From a virus (taxonomy: Duplodnaviria > Heunggongvirae > Uroviricota > Caudoviricetes), in the IMG/VR virus record IMGVR_UViG_2565956721_000002: 64,000 nt of DNA; one strand, 5' to 3'. The notes beneath the pieces are model-generated. The model was not told where the DNA came from, ran no database searches, and saw only the letters and a program-made list of their open reading frames with translations. The translations under genes and the position numbers were made by a program. Positions 1,285 to 10,980 of this stretch are shown piece after piece; the first letter of the stretch is position 1, and every line of letters starts with the position of its first letter.

Positions 1285-2124
1285 TCACGCATCGCTATCC
1301 AACAGCAAATCATCTGCGCGGGTGCGATCAAACGTAGGCGTTGCTTTCACAATAGTGCCGCCCGGCGTTGCAGTGATCGGGGCGTTAATCGACGTAACTT
1401 CAGTAAGCGAAGTTGTATCCGAAGTTTCAAACCAGCAGAATGCTTTTTCGGTATCAGAAATCTCATTCAAAGTGATCATGTCGGCCTGTTCATTTACAAC
1501 AACCGACAAATAGAGCGTAAGCCCATCAAACACTATATGCAGTGGCAGTAGAGGCTTTACGAACTGATTAAACTTTCTGAGAATTTCTTCTGTAATTGCG
1601 GACTGATCTATCGTTCCAGTAATACCCATTGTCCGGGCCAAGTCGTTTATGGGAATACTGATCATTCCTCTGGAAGTCAGAAACATCTCGCCGAATGTGC
1701 CGCCGGTGGTTTCCAGTGTGCTTTCTGGAATCAGGACCGTGCCATAGGGATGACGTTCAAAGTCCACCGGAGCATATATGGGATCCCATAAAACCGATAT
1801 ACCGTTAAATTCGCGATAAATTGTCTGGTTTATAGGGCGTTCAGTACCCTTAAAATGGATCTCATCAAACCGCTGTTGTAACAACATCGGAACGGAAGAT
1901 GAATTCGACGTTCTGATAGTAAAAAACTGGCCAAGTTCATTTGTCCTAGTCTCCAGATCCTCCTTGCTCATGGAGAAAATAGACTTCCGGTTGGTAATTC
2001 GCTCCAACCATGGGTCAACAAAGGTGTCCATCATTGACTGAACCAAATCAGCCAATGATTTATAAAGTAATGACTTTTGCTTAGCTGATGTAAGCCGGTT
2101 ATTAAACCAGGAACGCTGCATCAC
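1285..2124 (-). CDS. baseplate protein (279 aa)
   Basis: Overlaps stop of upstream 477-aa ORF (translationally coupled) inside baseplate block. Confidence 0.35.
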   Translation of the reverse strand: MMQRSWFNNRLTSAKQKSLLYKSLADLVQSMMDTFVDPWLERITNRKSIFSMSKEDLETRTNELGQFFTIRTSNSSSVPMLLQQRFDEIHFKGTERPINQTIYREFNGISVLWDPIYAPVDFERHPYGTVLIPESTLETTGGTFGEMFLTSRGMISIPINDLARTMGITGTIDQSAITEEILRKFNQFVKPLLPLHIVFDGLTLYLSVVVNEQADMITLNEISDTEKAFCWFETSDTTSLTEVTSINAPITATPGGTIVKATPTFDRTRADDLLLDSDA

Positions 2125-3554
2125 TCCTCCTCATACGAAATATTAAAGGTGGAGTTTTCTGTATCCAGATAAACGAAATCGTAAAAGCCGTTGGACTCAT
2201 TCCACTCGACAAATTCCAGATAAAAGTCGCGGAAATAACCCAGCGTTTCTATAAAAGCCCAAACGTCTTTTTTCTTAATCAAGATGTACTTTCCGACGCG
2301 GTTCGGATCAAAGAAAGTTGAGTCGCGCCCAAATTTTGTTTCCAGTGCCGACTTCAGCTCATCGGTCACATTCTCAATGGTCAGGCTTGCCGATATCCGT
2401 CCGGTGATGGTTATCTTAAATGGTAGTTTTCTGACCTCTTTATAAGAGAATTTCTTGTTCAGTTCATTCGGTACCTTCTTAAAGGCAGTCAGGATCATTT
2501 CTTCAAGCTCTGACTGGCTTTTATTTGGATGCCATCCTGAAATAAATATCTTATTGATATTCTGAACATTATAAGCACCATCTAATTTCTCTTGCTGGCC
2601 TTCGCCCCATGCCTTTACCCAGGACAGCCCCGGGATGTTACGAACCAGAAAATACGTATAGTCCCCGCCCCATACGACCTGATCATCATAGGCAAGGTAA
2701 TATTGTGCACGGTTACGTGTGATCTCCGTTGTTTCAGCATCGGTACCTGCGGTTATAGGTGTCGTTGTCTTAACTGAAATCAAATTAGCTAAATTAGCCG
2801 CAGAATTGACAGGCGTCAGGTTTTGGCCAGCAACCAGGGTTATATCGCCGTTGGTGCACCATACCTTAAGCGTAATTGTCGAGCCTTCTGGCGGTATTTG
2901 CCCAATTAGCCCATCGCCGAATCGAACACCCAACTGTTCGGATGGTTTATAAAACTCAACGTAGACCTGGCTTTTACTACCGGCTAACCGGAACATAGTG
3001 CTGGAAGACCACTGCGTGGTCTTACCATCGGTCGTCACGAATACTTCCAGCTTATAGCAGACAGCAGTGAGAGCCTTTGATAACACGACTTCCAGAAATT
3101 CTTTGGCTGCCGTAACGGTATATGTCACCTCCTGGATTTCCAACTGTGCCACTTCTACCGTACCGGTGCCGTCAACCAACCTGCATACATCCATAGTCAT
3201 GTAAGGATACTGGTCGTCAGATATTAAAGGCATGTTTTTGGGGATTACCGCTGGGGCATCTTCACTTGTGGCGGTGATCTCAATCATCCCCGATGACGGT
3301 GTTGGCTTGGTACCAACGTAACTATTCGTTTCTGCCGCTGCCAGGATAGAGGAACGCCGCGTCGCGGTCGATATAAAGCCTTCAGCCAGCGCCGCATCGG
3401 CATACTGAAAGCACCTGTAGACAATCTGGGTAATAAACAATGTCAGCATCGAGACAAATTGAGAGCCGACAAACTTCGACCAGAATGAATCTTTCTCGAC
3501 AAGCTCTTCAAACTCTGCACGAATACTGTCTTTAGTCGGTGTTGTTTTACTCAT
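2121..3554 (-). CDS. baseplate protein, gpJ-like (477 aa)
   Basis: Size and position between gpW-like gene and tail fibre genes; 4-nt overlaps with neighbours. Confidence 0.4.
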   Translation of the reverse strand: MSKTTPTKDSIRAEFEELVEKDSFWSKFVGSQFVSMLTLFITQIVYRCFQYADAALAEGFISTATRRSSILAAAETNSYVGTKPTPSSGMIEITATSEDAPAVIPKNMPLISDDQYPYMTMDVCRLVDGTGTVEVAQLEIQEVTYTVTAAKEFLEVVLSKALTAVCYKLEVFVTTDGKTTQWSSSTMFRLAGSKSQVYVEFYKPSEQLGVRFGDGLIGQIPPEGSTITLKVWCTNGDITLVAGQNLTPVNSAANLANLISVKTTTPITAGTDAETTEITRNRAQYYLAYDDQVVWGGDYTYFLVRNIPGLSWVKAWGEGQQEKLDGAYNVQNINKIFISGWHPNKSQSELEEMILTAFKKVPNELNKKFSYKEVRKLPFKITITGRISASLTIENVTDELKSALETKFGRDSTFFDPNRVGKYILIKKKDVWAFIETLGYFRDFYLEFVEWNESNGFYDFVYLDTENSTFNISYEEE

Positions 3555-3910
3555 AGCACCACGTCCTGTGTGATAGTTATATCCCTGATACGAATGGATA
3601 TTTTCAACTTATCAAAAGCATCTCCCTCGGCTACTGACAAGCCAGAAATCGGTATGTCAGGTAAATCTACCGTCAGTTTTTGCAACAGCATTGCCTCAAC
3701 CGCAATTTGAACATGCGACAAGTTGGTCGGTTCGTGTTTAAACTGCGGTAAAACATTGCCCCATGACGGATCTCCGTATACCTCACCCTGATAAGTGTTT
3801 AGCCACTCATATAAACGAGCGCCCCAGGCCTCCTCCTGGGACTCATACGTTTTTACGCCGGATAACTCCAGCGTCAGCAAAGGATCAATTTCGTTATTGT
3901 TGGCCATCAA
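3551..3910 (-). CDS. baseplate wedge protein, gpW/gp25-like (119 aa)
   Basis: Small ORF directly after tape-measure gene with overlapping stop/start. Confidence 0.4.
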   Translation of the reverse strand: MMANNNEIDPLLTLELSGVKTYESQEEAWGARLYEWLNTYQGEVYGDPSWGNVLPQFKHEPTNLSHVQIAVEAMLLQKLTVDLPDIPISGLSVAEGDAFDKLKISIRIRDITITQDVVL

Positions 3911-6900
3911 TCAACTCTCGCGTAGTCATTCATCAACGGATCATCAATTGACAGTGGTACCGTGCGCATAACGCCCGGCTGAGGCGTGCTGACCTTTACG
4001 ACAGTTCCCTGGCCTTTCGCCGAGTCTTTGGTGTGCTCTTCAATCCTGGCAAGCAATGAGGTCATCTGCGCAAACAGCCGCTTCGTTTCACCATCAAGTG
4101 AAACGGTATTATCAGCCAACTGCATTGTCGGCTTGGCACCGGAGCCGCCAAGGTCACTAATAACCTGTCCGTCTATCTGCATACGACCGGTTGGTTGCTG
4201 CAAATCGTTGGCGGCAGTCGTCACCTGGAACGTGGATGCTGGTTGAGGAGAATTATTTGAGCGCATTCCCCGGGCATTAATGAGTTTGTCATACAGTCCA
4301 TCAATCCCCATTTGTGCGCCGAGCTGGTCAAAGTAACTTGAGTTGCTGGCCACTGGACGCGCCTCTTCAACTGGCGTCGGAGTATCAACATACACATTGC
4401 CAGCTGCTGTTGCGGTCCCATTTCCTCGTGCACGTTCTTCGAGGGTTCCCTGGACGACTTCTCGACGCATCCCCCGACCATTCATGAATTTGTTGACCAG
4501 ATCGTTAACGCCAACAGCATTACCGATTTTGTCTACCAGACCGCCCTTCTCAAACGGGCTATCACCAGGGGTAAACGCCAGGCCAGTAGACTGATCGATA
4601 ACGGCGTTATCAGGCAGTGGTCCCCTCACTCCATATTGCGCCCCCCCCTGTGCTCCTGCCCCTGGTGTATAGATTTCACCACCTAAATAGCGAGCACGAT
4701 GAGTATTGACCTTGATCGCGTACTCACGGTTTTCTTTCGATAAGTCACCTGTGCCTTTTTTCCACCTATTAATAGTGCCAAACCCAGCGTTATATGCAGT
4801 GATGGCCTCGTTTAAGTCTCCATTGGCTTGCTTCAGATACTTGCTCATGAGAAGAGCCGCAGCTTCTGCCGATTTCACAGGATCAAATGCATCCGGTTCC
4901 GATATCCCTGTCTCTTTACGAGCAATACTCGTGAACTGGAACATCCCGAGTGCGCCACCACTTAACTTTCCATCTGGTGATCTTGTAAGCGGAGACTTTG
5001 CGTTAGGATCCCCTCCTGATTCAGTTGCAGCAATCGCGTAAAGAGTGCCTTCAGGAAGACCATATTTATTCTCTAGTTCAGCAAAATACGGAGCTAACTT
5101 ATCGAGATTTGCCTTACCTTCAGCGCCAAGGCTTCCGACTTTTACATCTAAGTTGCCATTATTGTAGGTATCAGCAGCTTTCTGAATGTCATTCCCAGTG
5201 CCGGTGGTATTACGCGACGATGATGACGAGCTATTTTGTCCAATAGCTGAATCAATTTTCCGCACCGCGCTATTGCCCATTTCTACGGCATTTGCATTGA
5301 TAATCTGATTGGCAGTTTCTTTAACTGTTTTATTGCTATCTTTCGCCGTGTCCAGTGCCGCATTTATCACGCGGGTAGCAATATTAGTCTGTTTAGCATC
5401 GGATTCAGTTTTAGAATCAGATGTCTCCTGGTGGCTATTAACCGGAGCTTTTAACTCTGGAGTGATTTCTTTTGCATTAGCCTCGCCGATCGGATTGGGT
5501 ATTTTTGATACAATCATTGCCGCAGGGGTATTTTTAACGGCATCAACCGCTGCATCTAATGCTTTACCGGGTAAATTTTTAACCCCATCCCAAATATTAC
5601 CAGCCGCCTCTTTAATGTGTTTCCCTGGGTTCTTAATGAAGTCAATTGCACTATCAATTGCATCACTGAAAACCTGTTTCAGGTTATCGACAGTAAAGAA
5701 GTCTTTGATGGCATCCAGCTTTTCAAGCAACTTATTAGATGTATCGCTAAACCATGCTGAAACAGCATCACCAATCTTTGCTGTGTAATCATCGAACTTG
5801 GTAGAAATGGTGTCGCCAAGGTTAGAAATATATGTTTCTAAGTTGGTAACCCCGCTATCAATGGCCTGGGCAATACTTTCCGTCGAAAATGATTGCAACA
5901 TATTGCCGATATCCTCAAATCCAAGTGATTTGAGAACATCACCAATAGCACTGCTAATACCAGATACCAGTCCCCCCAAATCAAGAACATTGGCTAACGT
6001 ATAAGCGGCTTTTTGCTGGAATGATGGATCTTGTCCTGATTTAAGCCCAAACGCTCGACGTTGCGCTTCTGTATCATTCCAACCGGTTACCGCATCATAA
6101 ATACCTCCAGCCACTGTGCCGACTAGGGGAATTGCGCGTAACGCCCCTTTACCAACTGCCTTTAATCCAAGTTTACCTGCTGCCCGGGCAGCCAAATCTC
6201 CGCCTTCATGGGCGAGAGTCTTCTTGCCCCCACCGCGTAGCATTCCTACGAGTCTCTTTGCCCCCAGAGCGCCAAAAGCGAGTGCTCCAGCTTTTTTCAG
6301 CATGCCACGCCCCATTAACAACGACGCGACGCCACCGGCCCCCTTCCCTAACAGGCTAAATAGTTTGGACAGCAAGCCGCCCTTCTTTTTCCCGGTGTTT
6401 TTGGCTATCTGATCAAGGGCGCTGAGAATCTTGTCATTGCCCTCTTTAATTTCGCTGGTCTGCTCCTGAAGTTCCTGAACCGTCCGTTTTTGGGTGTTAA
6501 CCTGAACGACATCGGCACTATTTTGCGATTTACGCCTAAAAAAACCTTTTCTACGGCTGTTATCGTCATTGCCACGAATCACATCGGCAATAGACTTTCT
6601 GGCACCATTAAGCGATCCACCAACTTCTTTTGATATCCCGCCAAGCTCCTTCCCTGCTGCCCACAATGGACCAGCAACGGCATAACCTAACGCATCGACG
6701 GCACGAGTCTCTGAAGGGTTACCTATGCCTTCAGCTACTTTTGACAGTTTTTTTAATAAACCTGATTCAGCATTTAGACGCTCATCATCCTCTTTGCGCC
6801 TGGCCTTTTCAGCACGTTCAGCACGGGCATCTTCCGCTGCGGCCTTACTCCCTGACTTTCCAATAAAACGACCACGCGCATCGCGTTGGTTTTGGCTTTT

Positions 6901-7626
6901 TTGCGCACCGCCTTTTTGATCGAACATTTCGCGAGCGTGTTCGGCTGCTTCGGTCCGTTGTGCCTTTATATCCTCTGATATAGCCTTCCTGCGTCTTTTT
7001 TTACCCTTTGGTGTAGTTGATTTGGCCTGCTGTTCCTCTTGAGCAATGCCCTCCTGAACTACACGAGAAACGTCCCCTAAATTAAGCCGTTTCATTGCGT
7101 CAACAATAGGGTCTACTGATGGCGCATTGGCCACAAAGTCTGGCCGGGAATTTTCGATTGTTCGATTTAATGCCGACACACTGCGAGATACTGGGTCAAC
7201 CGTTGCAACGCGTTCCCCTTTCAAATCACGAGCGAGTTTGACCGTTTCTAACCGCTGTGCTTTAACATCCTCTGTTATTGCCTCTCTTCGTCTATTTGGG
7301 GGATTGTGCGCTGTTGGTGCAGCCTGCTGTTCACGGTTAGTGACTTTGTCCTCCCGTATACGAGAAACGTCCCCTAAATTAAGCCGTTTCATTGCGTCAA
7401 CAATAGAGTCCACTGATGGCACATTGGTCACAAAGTCAGGACGTGAATTTTCGATTGTGCGATTTAATGCCGACACACTGCGAGAGACAGGATCAACAGT
7501 TGCAACTCGTTCCCCTTTCAAATCTTCAACAGCTTCCCGAATACCTGCAAGCTCTTCCAGCTCTTTCGCGCTGGCGGTTTCAACTGTCCTTATAACATCG
7601 TCAATATTGGCGTTTTTTCTTTCCAT
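3907..7626 (-). CDS. sit: tape-measure / structural injection transglycosylase (1239 aa)
   Basis: Soluble lytic transglycosylase motif (AIAATESGGDPNAKS...GALGMFQF...AYNAG); Gly/Ala/Lys-rich low-complexity segments; large size typical of tape-measure. Confidence 0.85.
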   Translation of the reverse strand: MERKNANIDDVIRTVETASAKELEELAGIREAVEDLKGERVATVDPVSRSVSALNRTIENSRPDFVTNVPSVDSIVDAMKRLNLGDVSRIREDKVTNREQQAAPTAHNPPNRRREAITEDVKAQRLETVKLARDLKGERVATVDPVSRSVSALNRTIENSRPDFVANAPSVDPIVDAMKRLNLGDVSRVVQEGIAQEEQQAKSTTPKGKKRRRKAISEDIKAQRTEAAEHAREMFDQKGGAQKSQNQRDARGRFIGKSGSKAAAEDARAERAEKARRKEDDERLNAESGLLKKLSKVAEGIGNPSETRAVDALGYAVAGPLWAAGKELGGISKEVGGSLNGARKSIADVIRGNDDNSRRKGFFRRKSQNSADVVQVNTQKRTVQELQEQTSEIKEGNDKILSALDQIAKNTGKKKGGLLSKLFSLLGKGAGGVASLLMGRGMLKKAGALAFGALGAKRLVGMLRGGGKKTLAHEGGDLAARAAGKLGLKAVGKGALRAIPLVGTVAGGIYDAVTGWNDTEAQRRAFGLKSGQDPSFQQKAAYTLANVLDLGGLVSGISSAIGDVLKSLGFEDIGNMLQSFSTESIAQAIDSGVTNLETYISNLGDTISTKFDDYTAKIGDAVSAWFSDTSNKLLEKLDAIKDFFTVDNLKQVFSDAIDSAIDFIKNPGKHIKEAAGNIWDGVKNLPGKALDAAVDAVKNTPAAMIVSKIPNPIGEANAKEITPELKAPVNSHQETSDSKTESDAKQTNIATRVINAALDTAKDSNKTVKETANQIINANAVEMGNSAVRKIDSAIGQNSSSSSSRNTTGTGNDIQKAADTYNNGNLDVKVGSLGAEGKANLDKLAPYFAELENKYGLPEGTLYAIAATESGGDPNAKSPLTRSPDGKLSGGALGMFQFTSIARKETGISEPDAFDPVKSAEAAALLMSKYLKQANGDLNEAITAYNAGFGTINRWKKGTGDLSKENREYAIKVNTHRARYLGGEIYTPGAGAQGGAQYGVRGPLPDNAVIDQSTGLAFTPGDSPFEKGGLVDKIGNAVGVNDLVNKFMNGRGMRREVVQGTLEERARGNGTATAAGNVYVDTPTPVEEARPVASNSSYFDQLGAQMGIDGLYDKLINARGMRSNNSPQPASTFQVTTAANDLQQPTGRMQIDGQVISDLGGSGAKPTMQLADNTVSLDGETKRLFAQMTSLLARIEEHTKDSAKGQGTVVKVSTPQPGVMRTVPLSIDDPLMNDYARVD

Positions 7627-7654
7627 GATCTTATCGCCTACCGTTTCGGTTTAA
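7061..7654. repeat. in-frame tandem direct repeat, period 297 bp, inside sit (about 170 bp of each unit near-identical)
   Basis: acacgagaaacgtcccctaaattaagccgtttcattgcgtcaacaata... at 7061 recurs at 7358; protein shows RVATVDPVSRSVSALNRTIENSRPDF twice, 99 aa apart. Confidence 0.8.
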
Positions 7655-7707
7655 GTTTTTCTTCCAGTTTCTCCAACAGGAAAAACGCATAGGATTCAGT
7701 AAGCCTT

Positions 7708-8589
7708 TCAGCGTCCTGAATCGGTATACCCCCATACAAAACCAGGTTGGACACTAAGGTCTGATAGCTTTTCAATCCCCACCTGTGGAATGAAGTCGGT
7801 AGCCCGAAAGGGCACCCACAGACGGGTATACGCACCCTCTGTGGACTCCTTTGTATCCTGGTTTGGGCATTTGTGCGGCGGGAGACGAAGACGCATTTCG
7901 CCTTTATCGATGTAGCACGGTAAACCATGTTCGAGCTTTTCATGAGCCAGCCGGATGTGTGCCGCCAGCTTCATAAATTCAGTATCAATGGCCATCCGTT
8001 TGATCGTTTCATAACGACGCTCAGCCTGCTCTTCACGAGTACCGCTAACATCGTTATAAAGTTCACACTGATAAGCGAATTCCCAAAAACGCAAATCAAC
8101 GATCGCTTCTTTGAATTCCGCGTCGTCTTCAGGTGGCAATGCTGCTCGGCGCATCTCCAGCATTTCCATTGCCCAACCATCAAGCGGCACGATACGCCAT
8201 TGATAAGGCACGCCCTCTACAGACACCTCAATATCGTCAATGAACGGTTCCACTTCCAGGACCTGGATATCTTCAGCCAGAGCATTCATATCGCAATCGT
8301 AATAATGCTCTTTACCGCAATGTTTACAGGTGTAGGTAAATGTCTCGATCGGTGTTTCGCGGGAGCCAGTAAATATCCACCATAACGCGGTAATCCGGTC
8401 CTGTGCCGTCCATTTCAGTGGATCATGTTTCGCAGCTTCAGCCAGCAAGGCTTTTAAATACGCTGTTGTCTGCTGTTCTTGTTCCTCCGGTGTTATCGAG
8501 TTGAAACGCATCGCATCAGCAATATTTGGCTGACGGAACTGGATTAATTCAGTTGGCCGCGATGGTAGCGGGAAAAGGGGTAAAAGCAT
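7708..8589 (-). CDS. hypothetical virion-module protein (293 aa)
   Basis: ORF upstream of sit on same strand. Confidence 0.4.
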   Translation of the reverse strand: MLLPLFPLPSRPTELIQFRQPNIADAMRFNSITPEEQEQQTTAYLKALLAEAAKHDPLKWTAQDRITALWWIFTGSRETPIETFTYTCKHCGKEHYYDCDMNALAEDIQVLEVEPFIDDIEVSVEGVPYQWRIVPLDGWAMEMLEMRRAALPPEDDAEFKEAIVDLRFWEFAYQCELYNDVSGTREEQAERRYETIKRMAIDTEFMKLAAHIRLAHEKLEHGLPCYIDKGEMRLRLPPHKCPNQDTKESTEGAYTRLWVPFRATDFIPQVGIEKLSDLSVQPGFVWGYTDSGR

Positions 8590-8603
8590 CCTTGCTCCTT
8601 AAT

Positions 8604-9215
8604 TTAAAGCGAAAAACTAAAGCCCAGAAGGGAAGCTAAAGAACTTGAGGATTGGTTAAACGTGCTGTGCAACGCGAAGGTCATTGGGAATGACTTAAAT
8701 TCCGTAACCTGATCCCGCGCATAGGTGACATCGCCGGTAGTGACCGGGAATACCGTCATCTCATTTTCCAGTTTGGTTAAACCGGAGGACAGCAACCGAT
8801 AAATACGCACATTGAGCAAATATTTAGACGGTATATTCCCGGTACCGTCCGGATTGATCACCCGACTTTTTGCCGTCTTAAACCAGTCCAAAACGAGGCC
8901 ATCAACGGTATCCCTGACCATCATTGTTATCTGCCCAGGTGAACGCTCCGTTGGCTGAAGGATATTCCCTCCGCCGATTTTAATCGTTTCATATTCGATG
9001 CTGTAATCGTGGTAGGTAATGTCTTTAGCAAAGAAGTCTGCCCCCTCCAGACCATCAACTTCGACAGAGAACTGCCATCCTTGCGCGAACAGCATTTTGT
9101 TCATGATGATTGACGTCAGCTTGCCAACTTCCCGCTCACCAACGCCGGAGCCAAATAATGTCGTCGTTAATGCCGAAGATACATAAGACTTTACTGAAGC
9201 AACATTAAGCCCCAT
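8604..9215 (-). CDS. hypothetical virion-module protein (203 aa)
   Basis: ORF in same co-directional block. Confidence 0.4.
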   Translation of the reverse strand: MGLNVASVKSYVSSALTTTLFGSGVGEREVGKLTSIIMNKMLFAQGWQFSVEVDGLEGADFFAKDITYHDYSIEYETIKIGGGNILQPTERSPGQITMMVRDTVDGLVLDWFKTAKSRVINPDGTGNIPSKYLLNVRIYRLLSSGLTKLENEMTVFPVTTGDVTYARDQVTEFKSFPMTFALHSTFNQSSSSLASLLGFSFSL

Positions 9216-9225
9216 ATCAGCCCCC

Positions 9226-9816
<591 letters not shown>

Positions 9817-9945: not shown

Positions 9946-10980
9946 TCAAGCCTTAAGAGGCTTTGTGTATGTTCGTGTAATCCATCCAGTAATAAACTCG
10001 TCCCCTGATTTAACCTGCACGAAAAGCCATTGGCGATCTTTTTTATCTAAAACAGCCACTATAGTATTTTTGCCAATGCATTCAATCACCTCACTATTTA
10101 TAGAAGGACTGACGTGTAATCTTACGTTCTCACCAGTTATAAAACGAAAACCATTGAGATCTTCCCAACTAATTTCTTTGTTTTCTTTAATTAATTGTTG
10201 TTTTGATATTGGTTTATCCTCAAACAGAGATATAAAATATGATTCTGCCTTGTGTATTCCCAGCAAGGTTTTCTCTTTTCCGTAATCAATAAAAGCACCA
10301 AACACAACTTGAGAAAATATAACCATTAGTAACCATTGCAGTGGATAAGGAAGCTCTTTAAATGAATCAACAAACTTTGAGCTAGGTTTATTTAATCCTT
10401 TATTTTGAACATTACTTTTGGTGTGTGATGTTTCAGTAGCACCTTCAGCATAAGCCTGCGCAATAGATGAAATCCCCTGCTCTATTATTTGATGTAATGA
10501 AGCATTTCTTGTTCTAGCATAGTGATCTAGTACTTTCTTTATGTCTTGGCTTACATCTATTTTATAACTTGCACTTTGTTGTAATTCTTTAAGTATCGCT
10601 TGCATGTTATTTAAACCAGCTTGCTTATTAAGCACCTCAAGCTGTTTTCGTAATGGCATAGCTATTTCGGCCTGTTTCCTTAGCATTTGAATATATCTAT
10701 TTGCATCATGAGGGAAAAGAGCCTGAGTCTGTTTCTGTAAAATCGCGATATGTTCACGATACTTGCTGCCTATTCCAGCCAAGTTCGGTATACTAGCCAA
10801 TTGTTTTCGAAGAGAGTTACTAATTACAGCTTGTCTATTCAATCTTGGCATATTTTGAAAAGAATGTTTTTCTATTCCTAATTGTTTTTGCAAGATCGCT
10901 ACGTGATCTTTGTATGATGGAATGAGCACTGACTGTTTATACAGCAACTTCAACTCATTAGAATTAGTAATTTTTGTCAT
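9946..10980 (-). CDS. membrane-anchored protein with N-terminal internal repeats and C-terminal SH3b-like domain (344 aa)
   Basis: Repeated KYR(D/E)H(V/I)AILQKQ segments, one hydrophobic helix (LQWLLMVIFSQVVFGAFI), C-terminal SH3b-like stretch; AT-rich DNA. Confidence 0.45.
   Translation of the reverse strand: MTKITNSNELKLLYKQSVLIPSYKDHVAILQKQLGIEKHSFQNMPRLNRQAVISNSLRKQLASIPNLAGIGSKYREHIAILQKQTQALFPHDANRYIQMLRKQAEIAMPLRKQLEVLNKQAGLNNMQAILKELQQSASYKIDVSQDIKKVLDHYARTRNASLHQIIEQGISSIAQAYAEGATETSHTKSNVQNKGLNKPSSKFVDSFKELPYPLQWLLMVIFSQVVFGAFIDYGKEKTLLGIHKAESYFISLFEDKPISKQQLIKENKEISWEDLNGFRFITGENVRLHVSPSINSEVIECIGKNTIVAVLDKKDRQWLFVQVKSGDEFITGWITRTYTKPLKA

Follow-up and report, generated by a model that had tools for sequence, protein, structure and literature searches.

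The sit gene of the P1-like phage-plasmid analyzed here carries an in-frame repeat near its 5' end, which raises the questions of whether this repeat is real, how it arose, and whether it alters the length of the phage tail. The gene lies in a 64,000-nucleotide stretch of DNA (the window, whose positions are used throughout) from the virus record IMGVR_UViG_2565956721_000002.

The sit gene and its repeat units

The initial annotation assigned the gene to sit of a P1-like element, and this assignment was borne out by comparison with P1. Outside of the extra unit, the encoded protein is ~95% identical in amino acid sequence to P1 Sit (YP_006507; 1067/1126 identities by BLASTP), and the order and sizes of the ORFs at 2121-9792 agree with the P1 annotation of the bplA-pmgA-sit-pmgB-tub-pmgC late operon (Table 1). 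The profile phrog_2533 matched the window Sit over its full length (2517 bits, profile positions 34-1130 covered), and the lytic transglycosylase domain in the C-terminal third of the protein was recognized by PF01464 with E = 5.9e-26 (90.8 bits, compared with a cut-off of 21.3). In addition, the initial 25 kb of the window has 99.9% identity to ~97-kb P1-like plasmids of E. coli. The sit product is predicted from its sequence to be the tape-measure protein (TMP), or structural injection transglycosylase, of a P1-like phage-plasmid.

The P1 record describes the 1140-aa YP_006507 as a 'putative structural injection transglycosylase; putative tail ruler'. P1 Sit was found in virions by LC-MS/MS and is a predicted TMP (PMC9024508), P1 sit is essential as assayed by CRISPRi (PMC10695390), and in cryo-EM studies of P1, Sit was assigned as the TMP although it is unresolved in the maps (PMC12810830).

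A direct repeat of 168 nt (7060-7227 and 7357-7524) was detected, with 92% identity and a spacing of exactly 297. At an offset of 297, the best 168-nt segment had 154 matches, compared with a maximum of 72 in 30 shuffled sequences. Tandem Repeats Finder called no repeat in the window, because there are only two copies and these have 78% identity. When the full units 1 and 2 are compared, 232/297 nt (78%) and 70/99 amino acids (71%) are identical, and identity falls to about 62% in the unit tails (the last ~130 nt). The units are arranged head-to-tail in a single register, the repeat is in frame, and the reading frame of sit is intact. Each unit contains a conserved head motif and a basic patch (KKRRRK / NRRRE). 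The 35 codons that precede unit 1 match the unit ends at 32-33/105 nt, which is the chance level.

Based on these results, an in-frame tandem duplication with a period of 297 bp, as originally proposed, is confirmed as two in-frame units. Its placement at 7061-7654 was correct as to the repeat itself and incorrect as to the register, which was off by about 133 nt and extended beyond the sit start codon (7626); that span takes in the unique 35 codons plus 28 nt ahead of the ATG and omits the diverged tail of unit 2. The view that the repeated peptide ends at MKRLNLGDVSR had to be abandoned, as the repeat continues past '...LGDVSR' in diverged form (IREDKVTNREQQAAPTAHNPPNRRREAITEDVKAQRLETVKLARD in unit 1, VVQEGIAQEEQQAKSTTPKGKKRRRKAISEDIKAQRTEAAEHARE in unit 2) over the full 99 amino acids.

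The predicted length of 1239 aa, 99 aa more than P1 Sit, proved exact: P1 Sit has 1140 aa, and it lacks precisely 99 aa. When the two genes are aligned, reference P1 sit contains one unit and does not share the two-copy repeat. The two proteins have the operon context, the SLT domain, and the N-terminal 35 residues in common; the window Sit differs by having one more 99-aa unit (aa 36-134), the C-terminal 43 residues of which are strongly diverged from the P1 unit. At the nucleotide level, the P1 unit is identical to unit 2 of the window at 275/297 positions and to unit 1 at 235/297.

Table 1. Positions of sit, its repeat units, and related features in the window
Feature	Coordinates	Strand	Description
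sit CDS	3907..7626	minus	1239 aa; from ORF list and translation; similar to P1 Sit YP_006507; PHROG 2533 match
SLT lytic transglycosylase domain of Sit	4729..5088	minus	aa 847-966; Pfam PF01464
Unit 2	6928..7224	minus	aa 135-233; counterpart of the single P1 unit
Unit-2 head, conserved 168 nt	7057..7224	minus	92% identical to unit-1 head
Unit 1	7225..7521	minus	aa 36-134; extra 297-bp unit, missing in reference P1; diverged tail IREDKVTNREQQAAPTAHNPPNRRREAITEDVKAQRLETVKLARD
Unit-1 head, conserved 168 nt	7354..7521	minus	LKGERVATVDPVSRSVSALNRTIENSRPDFV..MKRLNLGDVSR; 92% identical to unit-2 head
Non-repeated Sit N terminus, 35 codons	7522..7626	minus	MERKNANIDDVIRTVETASAKELEELAGIREAVED; identical in P1 and window
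pmgB homolog	7708..8589	minus	directly upstream of sit; 293 aa; position and size as P1 pmgB

Two other ORFs of this region were noted. An antisense ORF that overlaps the repeat and the sit start (7127-7654, plus strand, 175 aa, TTG start) is most likely spurious; it was set aside, since it has no independent support and the gene that contains it is conserved and essential. After pmgC, the window contains a 344-aa ORF (9946-10980, minus strand) where P1 has simC (264 aa), and phage phi456 has yet other genes in place of P1 simC; both arrangements agree with the variable 'region 4' (simC, simB, simA) described for P1-like plasmids (PMC9603915).

Copy number and recombination at the repeat

The sit N-terminal region was found in 479 records of PLSDB plasmids, and the unit-1 tail was found in 137, twice in 8 of them. 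Among complete E. coli genomes, sit was present in 470, and the unit-1 tail was present in 198 (twice in 9). Three of the 20 sit-carrying records in the phage collection contain the unit-1 tail (phi456, 673R5, and 813R1), one of them (813R1) twice. At 80 IMG/VR loci, there were about 20 alleles with two copies and about 60 with one, and no locus of these 80 contained the unit-1 tail twice. The extra unit thus occurs at a frequency of 29-42% among sit carriers, and its tail is at least 99% identical in 131 of the 137 PLSDB records that carry it. The repeat region of phi456 (OR339795), vB_EcoM-673R5, pXH989-OQX, and pRIVM_C029554_1 is 98.8-100% identical to that of the window (1101-nt query). 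The two-unit alleles in the databases show no difference from the window allele, and they carry generic annotation. The duplication is an old, diverged one and not a recent event, and it is a common allele that is not peculiar to the window genome.

Three records with a doubled unit-1 tail (pXH989-OQX, pRIVM_C029554_1, and phage 813R1) were inspected directly, and three tandem units were verified in each. In pRIVM_C029554_1, the annotated sit CDS (WP_225104282) has 4017 nt and encodes a Sit of 1338 aa. The unit spacing was exactly 297 nt in all complete multi-unit alleles examined. In the record of phage vB_EcoM-813R1 (L002, ON470617.2), sit and its neighbors are broken into short CDSs, and the unit spacing is 296, not 297, which points to frameshift sequencing errors; the three-unit structure is still discernible in this record.

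These counts also bear on whether the duplication is an assembly artefact in the form of a mis-expanded repeat, a concern raised in the initial annotation. Beyond the general risk that tandem repeats pose in assemblies, nothing was found in favor of this explanation, to which we assign a negligible probability. The copies differ at 65/297 positions, so that reads place unambiguously, and the reading frame is intact. Identical or near-identical two-unit alleles are present in 137 plasmids, 198 genomes, ~20 IMG/VR contigs, and 3 phages, and they come from many laboratories and sequencing platforms, with hundreds of these records being independent and complete. Sit may legitimately have 1140, 1239, or 1338 aa, and the repeat can mislead short-read assembly and annotation. 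A search of the literature found no paper that notes this 1140/1239/1338-aa series or a length difference in Sit of P1-like elements.

The two-unit Sit is functional, because phi456 has the two-unit form and forms plaques on MC1061 (PMC10967188). Phage JL22 has the one-unit form of sit.

Every unit was then typed at the 65 sites (head, 17; tail, 48) that separate unit 1 from unit 2 of the window. The middle unit of the three-unit alleles is a clean chimera, with the start of the head from unit 2 and the rest of the head and the entire tail from unit 1. In L004, the middle unit is of unit-2 type at the first 13 head sites (2222222222222 followed by 1111+tail1), and in L005 and L002 it is of unit-2 type at the first 11 (22222222222 followed by 111111+tail1). 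Since these two breakpoints differ, at least two independent expansions have occurred. The single units are the reciprocal chimera of these middle units. Most of them, including that of P1, have unit-1 states at roughly the first six sites of the head and unit-2 states after these ((1/2)11111 followed by 22222...+tail2), and the single units of L024, L028, and L077 have other breakpoints, which implies several independent deletions. L024 is elsewhere identical to the window, and by this comparison it looks like a recent deletion derivative. All of the breakpoints of the one-copy and three-copy alleles fall within the 168-nt head. Several two-unit alleles (L019-L022 and L030) have mosaic unit-1 heads, a sequence pattern that indicates gene conversion.

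The 1.4 kb of sit downstream of the repeat (window ~5480-6880) was also compared among these alleles. This segment falls into two flank classes that are ~13% apart at the nucleotide level, with indels (noted for loci L008, L009, L013, L014, L028, L035, and L049-L055 and for phi456), and have a divergence of 2% or less within each class. One-unit and two-unit alleles are found in both classes, showing that sit is a recombination mosaic. On distance clustering of the same 1.4 kb, copy number is interspersed, even inside clusters at 0.5% distance.

The chimeric middle and single units, together with a copy number that does not follow the flank phylogeny, therefore show recurrent unequal crossing-over within the 168-nt head. 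As judged by these alignments, the sit repeat locus is a recombination-driven 1/2/3-copy polymorphism, and the chimeric units of the one-copy and three-copy alleles uphold the earlier suggestion of recombination at an internal repeat. Unequal homologous exchange in the 168-nt head repeatedly gives rise to three-unit alleles with a middle unit made of a unit-2 head and a unit-1 tail, and to one-unit alleles in which the start of the unit-1 head is followed by the remainder of unit 2. Head variants are also shuffled by gene conversion. The sit repeat is in this respect a recombination-prone site.

Age and relatives of the units

Between units 1 and 2, dS reaches 0.86 in the tail and 0.30 in the head; for the window compared with P1 across the remainder of sit, it is 0.12. 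Because its divergence from unit 2 exceeds that among P1-like sit alleles, the extra unit is either old or imported. By this measure, the unit types split before the present-day P1-like sit alleles did, or one of them was imported from a more distant lineage. The extra unit now resides on many different sit backgrounds.

Distant Sit homologs (P0019 and P0024) have a single unit, with the one in P0019 being 31% identical to unit 2 of the window, and the deep ancestral state was therefore probably one unit. Removal of one contiguous 297-nt block from a two-unit allele yields the common single-unit allele, so a loss in the P1 type and a gain in the other lineage fit the data equally well. We looked for a single-copy allele with a unit-1-type tail, because it would have pointed to exchange between two divergent alleles; none was present among the about 60 single-copy alleles.

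Relatives of the unit outside of Sit were sought by several approaches. A profile of the unit, searched against 1.84 billion representatives, found Sit proteins only, which places the unit outside any wider domain family. No Pfam family matched the unit (a Snurportin1 match on the basic patch, with E = 0.09, was rejected as noise), and the PHROG families that matched it have no known function. A homolog search in which Sit aa 1-335 served as query yielded fragments for the most part and a single distant relative, and a search of genome contigs returned two useful loci along with two tiny fragments at 100% identity. For aa 1-420, the AlphaFold2 model contains helices and coil only, at a mean pLDDT of 43 (very low confidence, which is usual for tape measures). 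In this model (pLDDT 43), each unit consists of three short helices, a ~30-residue Pro/charge-rich coil, and a ~25-residue helix that runs into the next unit.

The same searches bear on whether the unit is a discrete binding module, contacting PmgB, tail terminator or completion proteins, or the DNA end via KKRRRK / NRRRE, in which case copy number would affect assembly or ejection (their stoichiometry or efficiency) and not tail length. The conserved head motif and basic patch in each unit are compatible with this reading, and the N terminus of the TMP is the head-proximal end in lambda and T4 tails. The pmgB gene is directly upstream of sit, and its P1 product has been proposed, as a suggestion only, to be a chaperone of the tape measure (PMC9024508). 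Arguing against a binding module are the lack of a Pfam match, the PHROG families of no known function, a unit profile that finds Sit proteins only, and a model in which no fold is predicted. This reading is pure speculation, and we regard it as improbable.

Some of the matches were unusual in their make-up. P0021 (1009 aa, from the representative library) opens with the last part of unit 1, then has unit 2 and Sit up to '...GKELGGI', followed by ~780 aa unrelated to Sit; this arrangement reflects either a gene hybrid or an assembly error. P0020 (493 aa) has the first 26-34 residues of Sit (MERKNANIDDVIRTVETASAKELEELAG) at 100% identity and is otherwise unrelated; it may be a recombinant. The first 26-34 residues of Sit were also found at 100% identity in the two tiny fragments, one on a 337-bp Acinetobacter idrijaensis contig (L088) and one on a contig of a Bacillota MAG (L089), both of which are probably contamination.

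Tail length and the ruler question

Sit has a predicted role as a ruler, and its length can be compared with that of the P1 tail. The latter has 53 rings with a rise of 40 Å, a sheath of 2100 Å, and a total length of 2450 Å (PMC10304247). At 1.5 Å per residue, 1140 aa span 171 nm, compared with a P1 tube of about 212 nm, which makes Sit appear too short to work as a ruler that is purely helical; the P1 ratio is about 1.85 Å per Sit residue. A further 99 residues would correspond to 149 Å (3.7 rings) at the helical 1.5 Å and to about 185-190 Å (4.7 rings) at the P1 ratio, the gain per residue being uncertain because P1 departs from the 1.5 Å rule. By this analysis, the extra 99 aa probably lengthen the tail slightly, by ~15-19 nm or 4-5 rings of 40 Å.

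In the lambda and T4 tape measures gpH and gp29, in-frame insertions and deletions shift tail length proportionally. In work on the TP901-1 TMP (summarized in PMC5099701), a 29% duplication in its N-terminal part led to about 30% longer tails with a normal titre. The TP901-1, lambda gpH, and T4 gp29 variants each have an in-frame change in the extended N-proximal part of the TMP, as does the window sit. They differ from it in having been engineered and their tails measured, whereas the sit variant is natural, segregates at a frequency of 29-42%, and belongs to a contractile tail of unusual length.

Natural evolution of TMPs by duplication and loss of units has been described (Belcaid et al. 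2011, as cited in PMC5099701), and tandem repeats and homorepeats are found in TMPs (PMC13585406). In these natural cases, length shifts through gain or loss of internal units, as in sit. The repeats described there are for the most part either short (about 11 aa) or homorepeats and come mainly from siphophages, whereas the sit unit, with 99 aa, belongs to a myophage, in which it varies between 1 and 3 copies and its crossover junctions are explicit. Tape-measure genes are known to evolve by gain and loss of repeats, with a textbook effect on tail length, and the sit case is ordinary in kind.

The explanation that we favor, with some reserve, is that the window carries the two-unit allele of a 1/2/3-copy polymorphism produced by unequal recombination at sit and that each added unit extends the ruler. 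Sit would lie in the lumen of the tail tube as a length ruler, and the 99 extra residues, predicted (at pLDDT 43) to lack a globular fold and to divide about equally between short helices and Pro/charge-rich coil, would make this ruler longer and delay capping of the tube. The added 150-190 Å would bring two-unit tails to about 57-58 rings, compared with 53 in P1, and three-unit tails to about 61-62.

The main alternative, which we consider less probable, is that the polymorphism is real and tail length is unaffected. The N-terminal 35-235 segment would then act as a flexible spacer that takes no part in measuring (it might be folded back, sit in the neck, or serve only after ejection). In such a spacer, 99 extra amino acids would be tolerated, and their frequency would drift via recombination. 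The very low confidence with which this region is predicted and its ~30-residue Pro/charge-rich coils are consistent with a spacer, as are a dN/dS of about 0.5 in the unit-1 tail, which suggests relaxed constraint, a ratio of tail to Sit length in P1 that does not match a simple helical ruler, and the circulation of one, two, and three copies on near-identical backgrounds. The unit head, however, is under strong purifying selection (dN 0.05, dS 0.30), and the unit-1 tail is nearly invariant across the PLSDB records. In addition, the tape measures that have been tested (lambda gpH, T4 gp29, and that of TP901-1) scale proportionally, N-proximal changes included.

If the ruler extension that we favor is correct, sit offers a ready natural allelic series for the control of length in ultra-long contractile tails, in a phage with established genetics and cryo-EM, and it bears on how a tube of about 212 nm can be measured with 1140 residues. 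Roughly one in three circulating P1-like phage-plasmids, a group that is important in E. coli for carrying resistance genes, would then differ from the textbook P1 virion. As a more tentative proposal, P1-like phage-plasmids may keep a recombination-driven tail-length polymorphism (~53, 57-58, and 61-62 rings), in which the long allele has spread because length matters for getting to the membrane across different host envelopes, such as those with O-antigen or capsule. An unchanged tail would also be informative, as it would identify the ~200 residues at the Sit N terminus as a part of the protein that does not measure.

Published descriptions of the relevant phages were consulted for tail dimensions. 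The phi456 paper (PMC10967188) contains TEM images and gives no tail length, and the JL22 paper gives head size and no tail length. Phages 673R5 and 813R1 were found only in a preprint that deals with phages present in the genomes of clinical isolates. For P1 itself, Sit has been held to fit a '120 nm' tail (PMC9024508), compared with the 2100-Å sheath seen by cryo-EM (PMC10304247).
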